Shown here in pieces: positions 38,511-56,258 of a stretch of DNA of 64,000 nt. A program made the translations under genes and the position numbers. Under the pieces are notes generated by a model. The model had not been told where the DNA came from and ran no database searches. It saw only the letters and a program-made list of their open reading frames with translations. This DNA is from Patescibacteria group bacterium. GTDB lineage: Bacteria; Patescibacteriota; UBA1384; UBA12157; JAENIV01. Where the stretch lies: positions 4,865 to 68,864 of the forward strand of contig JBEKTP010000006.1 in assembly GCA_049515915.1 (NCBI GenBank). The letters are read 5' to 3'. Positions within the stretch are counted from its first letter, which is position 1. Every line of letters begins with the position of its first letter.

Positions 38511-38998
38511 CCTATAAGTATCAAAAAATGACCCAACGAGTGGATCATTTTTTGGTGGAGCTAGGGAGAATTGCACTCCCGTCCAAAAAACGATTTGACA
38601 ATCTTTGACAAGCATAGATACAGTCCTTGTTATCTTAAGAGTTATACCAGGACGATCTCTAACTCTCGAAGGTCAACTAATGTCGCCATTTCCGACCGGT
38701 CAACCAACGCATCGGAATGACGTGCTTAACCCCGGCTTACGCTAGAGCTAAGGCAGGTGCTAAATTTGGTTTAGCGTTTAGATTTTGCCACGATTTTTTA
38801 CGAGAATGCGTAGCCTACTCGACTTGAAATTGTCAAACGGGTTTTTTGTCGAATCTATATAGCCCCGTTACCTAAACCCTACCATATTTTCAGTCGGAAG
38901 TCAAGCAAATAAACATCAGCTTGACATTAAAGATAGGTTTTGATATTTTCAAATGCCTGACAGATCGTTGCTATTCTGATTCGTAAGGAGATTCGCCG

Positions 38999-51389: not shown

Positions 51390-52880
51390 CTATTTGGCAA
51401 ATTCAATCGCCCTGGTTTCGCGAATAACATTAACTTTAATCATCCCCGGATATTGCAGATCGTCTTCAATTTTTTTGGCGATATTTTTCGAAAGTTTAAT
51501 CGCTTCCAAATCATCGATGGCCTCCGGTTTTACCAGAATTCGCACTTCTCGGCCGGCTTGGATGGCGTAAGATTTTTCCACACCCGGAAAAGCATTAGCA
51601 ATATTTTCCAATTCCTCCAAACGCTTGACGTAGTTTTCCAAAGTTTCACGGCGGGCGCCAGGCCGCGAGGAAGAAATGGCATCAGCCGCTTTAACAATGA
51701 TCGCTTCTACCGATTTGGCCTCAATATCGTCGTGATGAGCCATAATCGCGTGAACAATATCTTCCGAAAGACCGTATTTTTTAGCAATGTCGCCGCTGAT
51801 GTGATGATGGGGACCGGGAATATCGTGATCAACCGCTTTGCCGATATCGTGCAAAAGAGCGGCCTTTTTGGCCAAATTCACGTCCGCGCCCAGTTCCGAA
51901 GCGAGCATCCCCGCAATATAAGCCGATTCAATCGAATGCTGCAAAACATTTTGGCCGTAGGAAGTTCGAAATTTCAACCGTCCTAAAATTTTCAATAAAT
52001 CGGGATGCAAACCCGCGACGCCGACTTCGTAAGCGGCTTGCTCGCCGGCTTCCTTGACTTGCTGACCAATTTCTTCTTTGGCTTTTTTGACCACTTCCTC
52101 AATGCGCGTCGGATGAATTCGGCCATCGGCAATCAGTTTTTCCAGAGCAACCTTAGCAATATTTCGCCGGATAGGATCAAAGGCAGAAATAACCACCGTG
52201 TCGGGCGTGTCATCGATAATTAAATCAGTGCCCGTTTCCTTTTCAAAAATTTGGATATTGCGACCTTCGCGCCCGATAATTCGTCCCTTCATTTCATCGG
52301 ACGGCAAACTGACCGCCGTCGTCGTCGTCTCGACCGTATGCTCGGAAGCTAACCGCTGAATCACCGACGAAAGAATCTCACGGGCCATTAATTGAGCTTC
52401 TTCTTTGGCGATCTCTTTCTGCTCTTTGATTTTCTTAATCAAATCGTCTTTATATTCTTTCTCGACTTGCCGCAGCAATAGATCCAATGCCTCTTCCCTT
52501 TTTAATTTGCTAATTTTTTCAAGGGCTTCTTCGTGTTTTTCTCTAACAGCCGTAATTTCAGTTTTAATCACCTCGATTTCTTTTTCTTTTTCGAGAACTT
52601 TGTTTCGTTCGACATCGACTGATTCCGACCGATTATCAAGTGACTCCTCGCGCCGGCGAAGATTTTTTTCGAGCTCTTGGAGATCTTTTTTTAAATCTTC
52701 TTCTTCTTTTTTCGCTTGTTCTTTAATCTTTAAAGCTTCGTCTTTAGCTTCAAGTAAAATTTCTTTTTGTTTTTGGAAAACTTGATCTTTTTGTCTTTTG
52801 GCGATATAGATTCGTCCCATATAACCAACCGCCCCACCGCCCACGGCCGTGGCTATTAAATACAATATTAAATTGACCAT
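51390..52880 (-). CDS. rny: Ribonuclease Y
   Basis: N-terminal TM, long coiled coil, KH ([12 protein letters not shown]), HD domain (LLHDIGK...HH.S). Confidence 0.85.
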
Positions 52881-52979
52881 TGCCTGCTCCGATCATTGAA
52901 CCTTCCTTTTAAGATAGAAAAACCAGTCTAATTATATAACATCTAGGTGGGAATGTCAAAAAATGTGAGTTCATGATTT

Positions 52980-54039
52980 CTACTCTCTTAGCCAAAACCA
53001 ATATTGATTTTCTAACTCTTGGTGAAGTTCATAAGTATTAGCGTGAGACAAAACGCCAAGATATGAATTTAAGGACTGTTTTATTGTCTCTTCGCTAATT
53101 AATCCTGTTTTATATTCCTTTACTCCTAGCTTTAACTTCTGGAAAATTCTTCTTTTTGTCTTAGTCCTTAAAAGCCGATGCTTTGGAAAGACGACAAAGC
53201 CCAAAAAATCAATTCCCTGACGAAATTTTCTAATCAAGATTTTGTTCGGATGAATTTCTAATTTGAGTTTTGTGGTTAAAAAAGCTTTTATTTTAGGGAT
53301 TAAATTCAACAAACATCTTTCGTTATCTGACACAATCACAAAATCGTCGGTATATCGAACGTAATACTTTACTTTTAAGCTGTGTTTTATAAAATAATCA
53401 AATTCATTAAGATAAATATTGGCAAAAAGCTGGCTGGTTAAGTTGCCGATGGGTATTCCCCGGCCGAAGGCCGTCTCTCTCTCTCTCTCTCGATTCGAAC
53501 GGGAAACTTTCAATAATTTCTCTTAGAAGCCAAATAGTGTTATCATCTTTAATTTTTTTGGTGATAATCGAAAGTAAAATTTTATGATCAGTTGAATCAA
53601 AAAATTTCTTAATGTCACATTTTAAAACGAAACAAGATTTTTGGCTATTTTTGCTGACTTTATTTAATGCATAAGCTAAATAATTTACCCCTTTATGAGT
53701 TCCTTTCTTAACCCGACAGGAAAAGGAGTGGGCGATAAACGTAGGCTCAAAAAGCGGATTTAGAACCCGAAAAACCGCATGGTGTAAAATCCGGTCTCGA
53801 ACAGCTGCCTTATGAATTTTTCGCTGTTTAGGATCGCAAATGGTAAATGAGGTATAGACACCATGTTTATATCTGTGATACTTTAAGTCGCGGTGAAGCT
53901 TTAAGATATTTGATTCTAAATTCCACTCGAATTCCAAAACATCTTTTTTCTTGAGCTTGTCTACCTTAAACTCTTCCCAAGCAAGAAAAAGATTTTCAAG
54001 TGAAATAATTTCGTCAAAAATATCAGTATAAAATTTCAT
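52980..54039 (-). pseudogene. DGR-type reverse transcriptase split into two overlapping frames at a (GA)n tract
   Basis: ORF 53407..54039 carries RT motifs 1-3 (RKIHKAAVRDRILHHAV, CDIKKFFDSTDHKIL). ORF 52980..53513 carries the DGR hallmark IGNLTSQ (IGxxxSQ) and YxDD (YVRYTDDFVIV). The frames differ by +1 and meet at the tract. Confidence 0.65.
53474..53490. repeat. (TC)8.5/(GA)8.5 dinucleotide microsatellite at the RT frameshift site
   Basis: tctctctctctctctct on the + strand, coding RERERE in both RT frames. Confidence 0.9.
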
Positions 54040-54053
54040 CGAAAGTAAAACCG

Positions 54054-54401
54054 ATGCAAGAATTCGATATTCCCATCTTTAAGAAAACTTATGAACTTTA
54101 CAAAAATTTTCATTTCGTTAGAAACACAGCGCCCAAACAAGAACGCTACACTATTTTTCTAAAATGTGAAAATATTATCCTTGAAATTATCGAAGGGATT
54201 TTAGAAGCGAGCGAGCTTTACAAAAATGAAAAAATGCCAGTTTTGAGAAAAACCAGCCGGAAACTGAATTTACTGAGAGTTTTCGTGCGTTTAATGAAAG
54301 ATACGGAATCGATTAAATTGAAAGACTACACCGTAATGGAAGAAGAGATTGACGAAATTGGCCGCATGCTCGGCGGCTGGATCAAGTCTACTAAGGAATA
54401 A
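54054..54401 (+). CDS. avd: Four-helix-bundle protein (23S rRNA IVS protein family), Avd-like accessory variability determinant
   Basis: 115 aa. ...YELYKNF..NTAPKQERYTIFLKCENIILEIIEG......IDEIGRMLGGWIKS matches the PF05635/TIGR02436 pattern. Divergent from the RT with a 14-bp gap. Confidence 0.75.
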   Translation: MQEFDIPIFKKTYELYKNFHFVRNTAPKQERYTIFLKCENIILEIIEGILEASELYKNEKMPVLRKTSRKLNLLRVFVRLMKDTESIKLKDYTVMEEEIDEIGRMLGGWIKSTKE

Positions 54402-54412
54402 AAGAAAAACGC

Positions 54413-55363
54413 CTACTTTCGCAAGCGTCTTTCTTTTACAAGGAGAGACTTCGGGAGGAAGCCAGATGCAGAGCCATAGCACCCGCTGGCATCGTCAATC
54501 CAGCGGGAGCCGAACCAGACCTCATCGTCGCGGAAGCGGAAGCACGGCGCGCCGTCGAACTGGCCACCGGCTCCCGAACTGAATTCGTCTCCGGCACAAT
54601 CGATCCAGAGGTCGTCATAGCGCTGAAGGCGTACCGGATTGGTCAGGATCATGACCCCAACCACGAAGGCTCCTAGACCAAATTCGCCCGTCGTGCATTC
54701 AATGACGACACGAGCTCGGCGAACGCTGCGGCCCCGATGGCGAATGCCGAACTGGGCCGGGACGACCAGAATGTCGGGGTTGCCCTGAACTTCGGCAAGT
54801 TCCTTCCAGAACTTCTTGGAACGAGCCGACTGGCGCAGGTGCTTTTCGTCAATCTGGCCCTCACGGTAGTTATAGAACCTACCGTCGCGAGCCTTCTTGA
54901 TTGCGTTGAGCACGGTCTGCACCGCCTGGCTGTAGGTCGAGCCGAAGGTCCCAGGATTCTTCATCCAGTTGGGGATGGCAAACCATCCCTCGGCACCCAC
55001 AGGCAGTTCGACCTCACCCTTCTCGATCTGCTGGAGCAGATCATGATTGGCGTAGCCGACGCCCGGGAACACTGCGCGGAGCTGGTTGCACTGTTCAGTG
55101 AGCCCGGCCGGCTTGCTGTAGCCGGAGAGGTAGCCGTACTTTGACGGCACTTCCTCGTCGCTGAATTCGTTTCTGACGCGATGCTCAGCGATGAAGTTAC
55201 CGATCAAGTCGGCAAGGCCCGGCGTCTCGTTGACGCGCTGGGCCTCGTCTTCGGAGAGTGCCGCATTGTTGTATGCGGCTTCGACCACCGAGATGAACTT
55301 GAGACCCTTGGGGTCTCGGGTGGTAACAGACGGAGCCAATGCTTTCCTAGACATCGGAGCCAT
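54413..55363 (-). CDS. GC-rich hypothetical protein, candidate DGR target
   Basis: 316 aa, no family recognised. C-terminal Gly/Trp/Cys-containing segment (...VWFGSRWIDDASGCYGSASGF) abuts Avd and ends in a hairpin (54401-54436). Confidence 0.3.
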   Translation of the reverse strand: MAPMSRKALAPSVTTRDPKGLKFISVVEAAYNNAALSEDEAQRVNETPGLADLIGNFIAEHRVRNEFSDEEVPSKYGYLSGYSKPAGLTEQCNQLRAVFPGVGYANHDLLQQIEKGEVELPVGAEGWFAIPNWMKNPGTFGSTYSQAVQTVLNAIKKARDGRFYNYREGQIDEKHLRQSARSKKFWKELAEVQGNPDILVVPAQFGIRHRGRSVRRARVVIECTTGEFGLGAFVVGVMILTNPVRLQRYDDLWIDCAGDEFSSGAGGQFDGAPCFRFRDDEVWFGSRWIDDASGCYGSASGFLPKSLLVKERRLRK

Positions 55364-55514
55364 CCTCCTCGGATGTGATATGGCTATCTCCCTAATGGGA
55401 TAAGCACTCTATAAACCACCATTTTTACCTGATAAATGATTTACAAAGCGCTTACCCCATGTATGTTTTAAGGTTCAAAGTAACAACATATAATAACATG
55501 AATCAGATTAAAAA

Positions 55515-56258
55515 TCAAGTCTTTCGGCCGGAAATTATCATCGCTTTGCGGCCGGAATCGATATTATCTTGGCGGCCGGCCCAATCGTGAATGGCGTTAT
55601 ACAAAATGGTCGCATTGAACTGATAATGATCGCCGTGTTTGGTGCCCACATCTTGGACGATAAAATTATTTTGGTTATAGCCGATGATTAAAAGCATGTG
55701 ATAAACCGGCCCGGGCGCCGTGTAATAAGGGTTGCCCAATAACTGCCCCGCCGCCGGCACAATCACCGGATGATTTTGGGCAATTTCGCGTTTGATGCTT
55801 TCGATACTGACGTTATAATTGACAGTCAAGTCATTAATTTGATAATAATCTTTGGCGACCAAAACCAGTTGGGCTGAGGTCAAATCTTGAGGATAACCGT
55901 TGGCATTTTCCCACGCGACAATGGCTTGAATTTGGTTTTCCATTGTTTGGGCCGAAAGACTGGCGCCCGTTTGCCAATATTTAAATAGAATCAAAGTCGC
56001 TTCTTCACAAGCCTCTTCGTGGAGGGTGTCCCAATTGCCGAGTGGTGCTTGAGTTTGAAAAGGAAAACCTGAAATTAAATAAGAACTGGGAAGAGAAGAA
56101 GATGTTGATTGCTCCGGCGTCGGCGTGGGTGAAGAAAGTAATACTGGACTGGGCGAAGCCGCAAAATTTGAATTTGAATGCCCATACTTATAATTGATTA
56201 CCAAACCAACGGCCAAAATAACGACTAGAGCTAAAAATAAAAAAATGACTTTTTTCAC
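55515..56258 (-). CDS. Secreted C39-like peptidase-domain protein
   Basis: Signal peptide, Pro/Ser linker, QAPLGNWDTLHEEACEEA (Cys) and YHMLLIIGYNQNNFIVQD (His) resembling the Peptidase_C39_2 fold. Confidence 0.45.
   Translation of the reverse strand: MKKVIFLFLALVVILAVGLVINYKYGHSNSNFAASPSPVLLSSPTPTPEQSTSSSLPSSYLISGFPFQTQAPLGNWDTLHEEACEEATLILFKYWQTGASLSAQTMENQIQAIVAWENANGYPQDLTSAQLVLVAKDYYQINDLTVNYNVSIESIKREIAQNHPVIVPAAGQLLGNPYYTAPGPVYHMLLIIGYNQNNFIVQDVGTKHGDHYQFNATILYNAIHDWAGRQDNIDSGRKAMIISGRKT

Follow-up and report, generated by a model that had tools for sequence, protein, structure and literature searches.

In the diversity-generating retroelement (DGR) of Bordetella phage BPP-1, the cassette comprises the variable region (VR) of mtd, the accessory gene avd, a template repeat (TR) and the reverse transcriptase (RT) gene brt. 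Phase-variable genes of Haemophilus, Neisseria and Campylobacter, as well as phase-variable methyltransferases, constitute simple-sequence repeat (SSR) contingency loci. Among DGRs, clade 2 is cell-encoded and confined to the candidate phyla radiation (CPR), with below-average activity (Roux et al. 2021, PMC8144416), and DGR RT open reading frames (ORFs) carrying a frameshift beside clean repeats have been reported sporadically, the break being attributed to decay or to errors in sequencing (Schillinger et al. 2012, PMC3521204). The locus considered here occupies positions 52,980 to 55,363 of a 64,000-nucleotide stretch of Patescibacteria DNA (contig JBEKTP010000006.1; the whole stretch that was analysed, 64 kb, is referred to as the window). 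It is a DGR whose RT gene is split within a (GA)9 tract and whose repeat is present in a single copy. A phase-variable, repeat-switched RT on a collapsed DGR is the best reading of this arrangement and is held with reasonable confidence. The DGR itself is ordinary for the CPR; the collapsed template, the allelic pair of repeats and, above all, the clade-wide GA switch are not.

The locus is a DGR cassette of the CPR (Patescibacteria) type, in which a target gene whose C-terminus is C-type-lectin-like is combined with an antisense Avd gene and the RT gene. It is a member of the clade 2 CPR DGRs (PMC8144416), whose low activity fits the mostly out-of-frame RTs described below. As in BPP-1, the RT belongs to the family with the IGxxxSQ motif and is accompanied by a four-helix-bundle Avd partner, the target, which has a C-type lectin fold, carries VR at its 3' end, the substitutions are adenine-specific, and a hairpin is located near the 3' end of the repeat. 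Unlike in BPP-1, an antisense Avd separates the repeat from the RT gene, no separate TR is present within the 64 kb, the hairpin corresponds to the one that flanks TR, the RT gene is broken by a polymorphic (GA)n tract, and the host is a CPR bacterium rather than a phage.

An earlier note on the window, made from its letters, had proposed a DGR-type RT, an Avd-like four-helix-bundle gene 14 bp from it on the opposite strand, and a target in the GC-rich 316-aa ORF beyond Avd; all three assignments hold. The RT carries GIPIGNLTSQ (53430-53459, minus strand) and YVRYTDDF (53340-53363, minus strand), i.e., both the IGxxxSQ and the YxDD motifs of DGR RTs. When its two halves are joined, the top solved-structure match of the 353-aa protein is the Bordetella DGR RT (8ub7), aligned end to end (E=5e-46), far above group II intron RTs (1e-21) and retron/Drt RTs, which score still lower. 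The nearest RT homologues adjoin TR/VR pairs, and the closest homologues of RT, Avd and target all come from Patescibacteria metagenome-assembled genomes. The Avd gene, which points away from the RT gene across a 14-nt gap and towards the target gene, matches both bAvd and DivGenRetAVD, reaching the equivalog cut-off of the latter (80 bits); its antisense placement is common to most of 80 related loci. The target assignment agrees with the VR pattern, with the modelled lectin fold and with the adenine-only repeat pairs found at the same place in relatives.

The GA tract and the frame of the reverse transcriptase

The two RT ORFs overlap on the minus strand and the break between them falls within (GA)9. 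The N-terminal frame enters the tract and meets a stop 67 nt beyond it, the tract places the downstream half in the +1 frame, and one extra GA unit fuses both frames into the 353-aa protein. No other dinucleotide repeat of five or more units is present in the 64 kb, nor is any homopolymer of nine or more nucleotides, and besides the frame break RT and Avd carry no other lesion. The split, which the earlier note had recognised but left unexplained, is real and corresponds to a polymorphic (GA)n frame switch.

Within the species, tract length varies in the DNA itself and determines the reading frame. The (GA)9 allele is found in the window and in L001, L208, L209 and L212 (about 19 contigs), (GA)8 in L002 and L211 (about five contigs), and (GA)10 in L210 (JGI 3300018015), which encodes exactly the reconstructed intact 353-aa RT. 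Contigs of the same organism from different samples show no differences over 5.3-8.3 kb except the tract (the repeat of L211 and one single-nucleotide polymorphism, SNP, apart). An intragenic tract that sets the frame, with in-frame and out-of-frame alleles within one species, is the hallmark of a contingency gene. As the split falls in the tract and the (GA)10 allele encodes an intact RT, the split itself is not decay.

The tract is also found far beyond this species. The closest full-length RTs possess Arg-Glu runs of variable length in the same loop, between IIESF and G(I/L)PIGNLTSQ. Metagenome contigs were scanned for (GA) of at least six units followed within 30 nt by a coding pattern for PIGNLTSQ, which gave at least 118 stretches, 80 of them taken as loci. 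The RTs found in this way share 33-81% identity with the N-terminal half of the window RT and conserve the position of the tract, whose length varies from 12 to 50 nt among the listed loci and is unlike in three of five near-identical pairs. For 73 of the listed loci the upstream sequence could be used; the frame is kept in 13 and shifted by +1 in 32 and by +2 in 28; clustering of the matches listed at 95% identity leaves 70 lineages, 13 in frame and 57 out of frame (binomial p = 0.005 against an expectation of 1/3). Two more split RTs (L007/L008 and L214/L215) were encountered by walking the target family, and a scan of viral contigs for the GA-tract pattern gave no matches. About half of the tracts are directly followed by GTAAA (L090-L169), which reads Glu-Ser-Lys in the productive frame and presents an immediate TAA in another. 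A shift stimulated by the stop codon at (GA)nGTAA was considered and rejected, since the frame relation to GTAAA is inconsistent. Translation of the split gene as two polypeptides was likewise discarded: the C-terminal frame lacks a conserved start codon, and ATGs downstream of GTAAA are out of frame.

In the out-of-frame genes both halves are kept. Their N-terminal ORFs span about 185-200 codons and their C-terminal ORFs a median of 155-156 codons; 51 of the 53 C-terminal ORFs that lie wholly inside contigs (60 out-of-frame loci) are full length, with two short exceptions, and YxDD is retained in 56 of the 60. At 23 out-of-frame loci the TR/VR pair persists, with mismatches at 9-25 adenines and at 0-2 other positions. 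These observations make it quite improbable that the RT frameshift simply inactivates a dying DGR in which the GA tract has no regulatory meaning. Such decay would agree with the loss of TR in the window, with the out-of-frame state of the two commonest tract alleles, and with DGRs on record that combine an inactivated RT with intact repeats (PMC3521204). It accounts poorly for the lack of any further RT or Avd lesion, for the full-length C-terminal ORFs and clean repeat pairs of out-of-frame relatives, for the conservation of the tract position across such divergent RTs, and for the sister species described below, which diversifies though most of its assemblies are out of frame. Unlike the cases in PMC3521204, the break lies at one conserved tract in at least 57 lineages, and in-frame alleles occur in the same species.

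Recoding, in which a 2-nt slip of the ribosome (tRNA-Glu/tRNA-Arg) or of RNA polymerase yields some full-length RT, is an unlikely explanation, although it could coexist with phase variation. In all three frames (GA)n encodes Glu-Arg repeats, and a 2-nt slip restores perfect codon-anticodon pairing; in about a third of the listed loci the tract is immediately followed on its 3' side by a hairpin of -8 to -20 kcal/mol, and VR diversification persists in populations with an out-of-frame consensus. On the other hand, the +1 and +2 frames are about equally frequent (32 versus 25-28) and the tracts range from 12 to 50 nt. Both offsets being common and tract lengths variable, there is no fixed slippery site or direction, and the fixed site, direction and conserved structure of programmed ribosomal frameshifting are all missing. 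Most loci, the window among them, lack the hairpin or have a weak one, and alleles at the DNA level suffice for the in-frame state.

The sister species (L216-L225) provides a view of tract and VR alleles together. Its Avd (P0245) is the closest to that of the window (92% identity), and its contigs are syntenic with window positions 51390-56258, in the order RNase Y, RT, Avd, TR, VR/target and C39 peptidase, with a target from a different, 275-aa family. TR is constant across contigs, one SNP aside, and at least four VR versions occur, with differences at 20-23 TR-adenine sites. The tract alleles comprise (GA)8 (+2, seven contigs), (GA)10 (in frame, 353-aa RT, L220) and (GA)12 (+1, L225), together with an interrupted tract of 10-unit length that is in frame (L222). 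VRs that recur across samples accompany the out-of-frame alleles (V1 in two contigs; V2 in three, one of which, L225, has an extra point change), and the two in-frame alleles carry unique VRs, with five differing sites between them. Small as the numbers are, this association of VR and tract is what a lock-and-explore switch would predict. Another close relative, L226, carries (GA)13 in the +1 frame.

Alleles thus coexist, out-of-frame alleles predominate in assemblies, the genes remain intact, and diversification continues in such populations. From the pattern across the clade we infer a reversible, heritable switch that would gate mutagenesis. The (GA)n tract lies in a surface loop before motif 3, and gain or loss of units, presumably by replication slippage, would shift the catalytic half among three frames. 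Slipped-strand mispairing might in this way turn the RT off and on, limit mutagenesis to a minority of cells and lock in successful VRs. As in contingency loci, the number of intragenic units sets the frame, several length alleles are found per natural population, and the position is conserved while the length is hypervariable. Unlike in contingency loci, the repeat is a GA dinucleotide in an uncultured, non-pathogenic CPR lineage, and the switched gene is a mutator, the RT, rather than a surface structure or a methyltransferase. Since the switched gene is itself a mutator, the switch would gate a second diversity generator.

Several points weigh against a phase-variable RT. In the window species the RT has no template, so that drift of the tract could be neutral there, and the in-frame allele is present in only about one of some 25 assemblies. 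All of 80 related GTDB loci are in frame, about 75 of them without a long tract; selection of this control set by tblastn score favours intact genes. Depletion of in-frame alleles in the scan may partly reflect ascertainment, since lineages kept on might have shortened or interrupted tracts, which a search for at least six units would miss. The TR-like allele described in the next section also fits awkwardly with a single collapse followed by a fixed VR.

An open question about DGRs is how a useful variant is kept while the mutator rewrites the same codons. A heritable and reversible frame switch of the RT, if true, would answer this retention problem: most cells would be off, with VR locked, and rare in-frame cells would explore. 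It would also explain the low activity reported for CPR DGRs, and survey pipelines that demand an intact RT ORF would miss most such elements. A literature search of incomplete coverage retrieved no description of an intragenic GA repeat or a frame-switched or frameshifted DGR RT, nor of a collapsed or single-copy TR/VR.

The features of the locus are collected in Table 1.

Table 1. Features of the DGR locus, in window coordinates.
Feature	Position	Strand	Remarks
RT C-terminal frame (motifs 3-7, thumb)	52980..53513	-	177 aa; Pfam RVT_1; open, full length
RT N-terminal frame (fingers, motifs 1-2a)	53407..54039	-	210 aa; Pfam RVT_1; aligns with bRT 8ub7 residues 5-180
5-bp hairpin (CGGCC-UUC-GGCCG) directly 3' of the GA tract	53461..53473	-	weak; 61-nt context no better than shuffles
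(GA)9 simple-sequence repeat in the RT gene	53474..53491		between motif 2a (IIESF) and motif 3 (GIPIGNLTSQ)
Avd accessory gene	54054..54401	+	115 aa; Pfam bAvd 8.7e-18; NCBIfam DivGenRetAVD 81.6 bits; PHROG 'Avd protein of DGR'
19-bp stem-loop, GAAA loop, A-run/T-run flanks	54398..54439		covers the Avd and target stop codons
TR-type 3' flank (AAGTCTCTCCTTGT and hairpin)	54402..54451	-	gives the target a 12-residue tail, KSLLVKERRLRK
Single 127-nt repeat copy, diversified VR-type body	54452..54578	-	aligns with the TRs of L007 and L035; 21 variable sites at 54480-54573
Target (variable-protein) gene	54413..55363	-	316-aa ORF; VR at 3' end

The single repeat copy and its two alleles

In relatives the two repeats are readily recognised. 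Eight of them carry a VR of 123-136 nt in the same region of the target and a TR 467-545 nt downstream; 153 of the 156 TR/VR mismatches are at TR adenines (17-22 adenine-only mismatches per pair), and the TR-to-VR spectrum is 95 G : 32 C : 26 T. Read along the target strand, the layout of the clade is target with VR, a spacer of about 390 nt, TR, about 50-80 nt with a hairpin, antisense Avd and RT. The two repeats end differently. VR finishes with ...CCG CAG T and a stop, followed by a CTTGA-rich structured spacer, and TR with ...CCG AAG TCTCTCC or AAATATCTCC, followed by an A-run, a hairpin, a T-run and the Avd stop. Hairpins are found at the same post-TR position in L030, L033, L049, L007, L035, L055, L077 and L213.

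The window repeat combines a VR-type body with a TR-type end. Its body contains no AAC codons at the variable sites and only 12 adenines in 127 nt. Its 3' end reads ...CTCCCG AAG TCTCTCC TTGT AAAAGAAAGACGCTTGC-GAAA-GTAGGCGTTTTTCTTTT, with the Avd stop 50 nt after the CCG that closes the repeat. The resulting tail of the target is found in none of 31 aligned homologues, most of which stop at or just after PQ, a few having other short tails. Family hairpins of the VR flank are not present at the window locus; the TR-flank hairpin is, with its GAAA loop about 20 nt after the repeat, and it has ACGCTTGC in common with the TR-flank hairpin of L213, the closest relative. The window hairpin is stable (-24.5 kcal/mol, z = -5.8), none of 200 shuffles being as stable, and is probably a bidirectional terminator between the target/TR transcript and avd. 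A VR-type body followed by the TR flank and its hairpin indicates that VR and TR are collapsed to one copy, the spacer being gone. A hairpin at the 3' end of the target had been pointed out in the earlier note; it is present and slightly wider than stated, and it is the counterpart of the TR-flank hairpin, not of a cruciform at VR and its initiation of mutagenic homing (IMH) site.

A TR/VR pair was sought in both orientations across the 64 kb by repeat finding and by sensitive self-blastn around the locus, and none was found. A diagonal scan of the whole window with A or T as wildcard revealed no TR, its one match being T-rich low complexity, and comparison of VR with both strands and of the relatives' TRs with the window returned only the VR itself. 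A TR and a VR in the same genome, as expected of a DGR, are therefore not both present within the 64 kb, where the repeat occurs once. The failure to locate TR by eye, admitted in the earlier note, is in keeping with these searches, and the expectation that a TR was still to be found in the contig does not stand. The fused structure recurs in at least 24 contigs (ENA, JGI and NCBI assemblies), with an identical VR in every window-type assembly; a second fused locus was sought among 31 related loci with enough upstream context, and none was seen.

The adenine-rich counterpart exists elsewhere, as an allele. At 90% identity the target protein falls in a cluster of four proteins, two of which (P0241 and P0242) match the window protein outside VR, bar one L-to-P change in P0242. 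Their VR region reads FDNAPYFNFNDDKVKFDTNWIDNANENYG, Asn-rich as TR-encoded sequence is, with the same TR-type tail. Contig L211 (JGI 3300038416) holds this Asn-rich, TR-like allele at the same position. Over 4.2 kb it differs from the window by one SNP at 52716, one GA unit and 21 substitutions at 54480-54573. All 21 differences in the repeat are A on the coding strand of L211 (15 A>G, 3 A>C and 3 A>T in the window), so that the repeat has 33 coding-strand adenines in L211 and 12 in the window, and the spectrum agrees with the TR-to-VR changes of the eight relatives. The lack of an adenine-biased pair, which the earlier note would have taken as evidence against a DGR, thus applies to the window itself; adenine-only mismatches are found between the alleles of L211 and the window, not within one genome. 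Since the counterpart was found only as the L211 allele, the TR/VR pair amounts to two alleles of one single-copy locus. Only these two VR states of the window species are present in public data, and no intact ancestor (ending ...GFLPQ-stop) was found in the sequence collection or in the 90% cluster. Such an allelic pair could show either how DGRs die or that violation of the directionality rule is possible in nature.

On the reading of a collapsed DGR with a phase-variable RT, VR and TR, normally direct repeats of about 127 nt some 500 nt apart, would have collapsed to one copy with deletion of the spacer of about 390 nt. Deprived of an adenine-rich template, which was looked for within the 64 kb, the window VR would now be fixed. 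How the L211 allele arose admits two further explanations. In the first, a recently intact ancestor collapsed twice independently, by a crossover in the 27-nt identical 3' end to give the window allele and by another at the extreme 5' edge to give L211, both products being inert. This is a tenable account, put at somewhat less than an even chance. Direct repeats 500 nt apart are prone to deletion, every in-register crossover yields the same architecture, and VR-bearing targets without Avd or RT do exist (L004-L006 and L009). Two rare events in a nearly clonal lineage would nevertheless be needed, together with loss of the ancestor; no other fusion is seen among the 31 related loci, and the L211 crossover would be confined to about 5 nt rather than falling in the identical blocks of 17-27 nt.

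The second explanation is that of a self-templated single-copy DGR: one collapse to the L211 state, a target::TR fusion whose own transcript then acted as template, after which adenine-mutagenised cDNA homed into the same copy while the RT was in frame and produced the window allele. We regard it as possible but doubtful. Fewer rare events are required than for two collapses, and an in-frame RT allele exists in the population. Apart from one SNP in 4.2 kb and the tract, L211 and the window are near-identical outside the repeat, where 21 of 21 differences are A to N with the usual spectrum of the family, and the 90%-identity cluster lacks the intact ancestor. Relatives share only about 5 nt before the first variable A, so an independent L211 crossover would need microhomology. 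The position and loop of the window hairpin, about 20 nt past the repeat, also fit the rule for phage DGR target-site hairpins (GRNA loop, 4-34 bp; PMC3240598), which the TR-flank loops of relatives do not. Against self-templating stand the missing VR-flank hairpins and conserved spacer of the family, the latter probably part of the DGR RNA, and the two VR states in public data, which give no sign of continued diversification. It would also break the directionality rule of Bordetella, where the TR flank (IMH*) reportedly blocks homing into TR. Were it correct, the fused copy would serve as both template and recipient, and the element would be a few-shot diversifier switched by (GA)n, the same switch gating and locking many CPR DGRs, a combination that is again doubtful. 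A single-copy DGR would be self-eroding because each round uses up adenines. The window element resembles a disarmed DGR, or perhaps one rendered self-templating, with an RT that behaves as a contingency gene.

Collapse of VR and TR by assemblers, along with a miscounted GA tract, is very improbable. VR-body and TR-body alleles do resemble two paths through a collapsed repeat bubble. The exact segments common to both repeats are only about 5-27 nt, below the assumed assembler k-mers; contig names from ENA (k141_...) suggest that the last k was 141. From the same ENA and JGI sources, contigs of relatives, k141-named ones included, were assembled with VR, spacer and TR intact. At least 24 contigs show the fused form, alleles are shared between samples, and tracts of 16-20 nt are far below the sequencing read length, taken as about 150 nt.

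The spacers of relatives, which have no equivalent in the window, carry structures of their own. In L007 (1249-1664), L030, L033, L035 and L213 a long, CTTGA-rich imperfect hairpin directly follows VR. The relatives' spacers share the hairpin GGGTTATCCACA(A/G)NGTGGGTA(G/A)CCC, and their conserved blocks include AGGCTCATGAACG and GAGATACTGCTTGC. These structures probably represent the target-site hairpin and part of the DGR RNA. An Rfam scan of the window, which is spacer-less, found no family at the DGR locus. In L112, L129, L163 and L214/L215 the target with VR is inverted relative to TR and RT, which implies that target orientation is not fixed in the clade; the inverted arms of L214 (3400-3526 and 4876-5002) are 89% complementary.

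The target gene and its surroundings

The target probably starts at the ATG at 55354 (313 aa), 9 nt after a GGAGG. Searches of its protein sequence against Pfam, NCBIfam, PHROG and PDB gave no match, and its 2226 homologues are every one from Patescibacteria, none with a protein name. Within the C-terminal ~45 residues, 31 aligned homologues display a scaffold with hypervariable positions. The modelled fold matches the C-type-lectin/formylglycine-generating enzyme (FGE) type, including the DGR variable proteins TvpA and TaqVP.

The target has a GC content of 59% (72% at third codon positions, GC3); the window as a whole has 42%, and RT and Avd have 33-36%. The family is GC-rich in any host (window, L007, L009, L035, L055, L213 and L214), e.g., 63% versus 33% in L035. 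Adenine depletion was considered as the cause and rejected: the coding strand contains about as much A as T, and in the absence of A/T asymmetry simple depletion does not account for the high GC. Possible causes are frequent transfer and mRNA-level selection.

Some targets appear on their own. Those of L004-L006 (P0004) and L009 (P0033) have VR-like C-termini and no Avd, RT or TR within 5 kb, and their tails are non-canonical (e.g., GFFPAKLKLVS). Such targets may be orphaned or served remotely.

Adjoining the target is a secreted-looking, 247-aa Peptidase_C39_2 protein (55515-56258, minus strand); the same neighbour stands beside the different target of the sister species and may be functionally linked to the target. 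The N-terminal half of the sister RT is 87% identical to that of the window and the C-terminal half 71%, and the sister has its own target and TR at the same chromosomal site; its cassette looks mosaic, with an exchanged target/TR module.

A promoter and terminator scan of the window added nothing further for the locus beyond a perfect sigma-70 consensus (TTGACA, 17 nt, TATAAT) at 52931-52959 on the minus strand, immediately past the stop of the RT gene and before the RNase Y gene. Elsewhere in the window, and unrelated to the DGR, are a tmRNA gene (38553-38866, minus strand, 113.8 bits) and seven tRNA genes.

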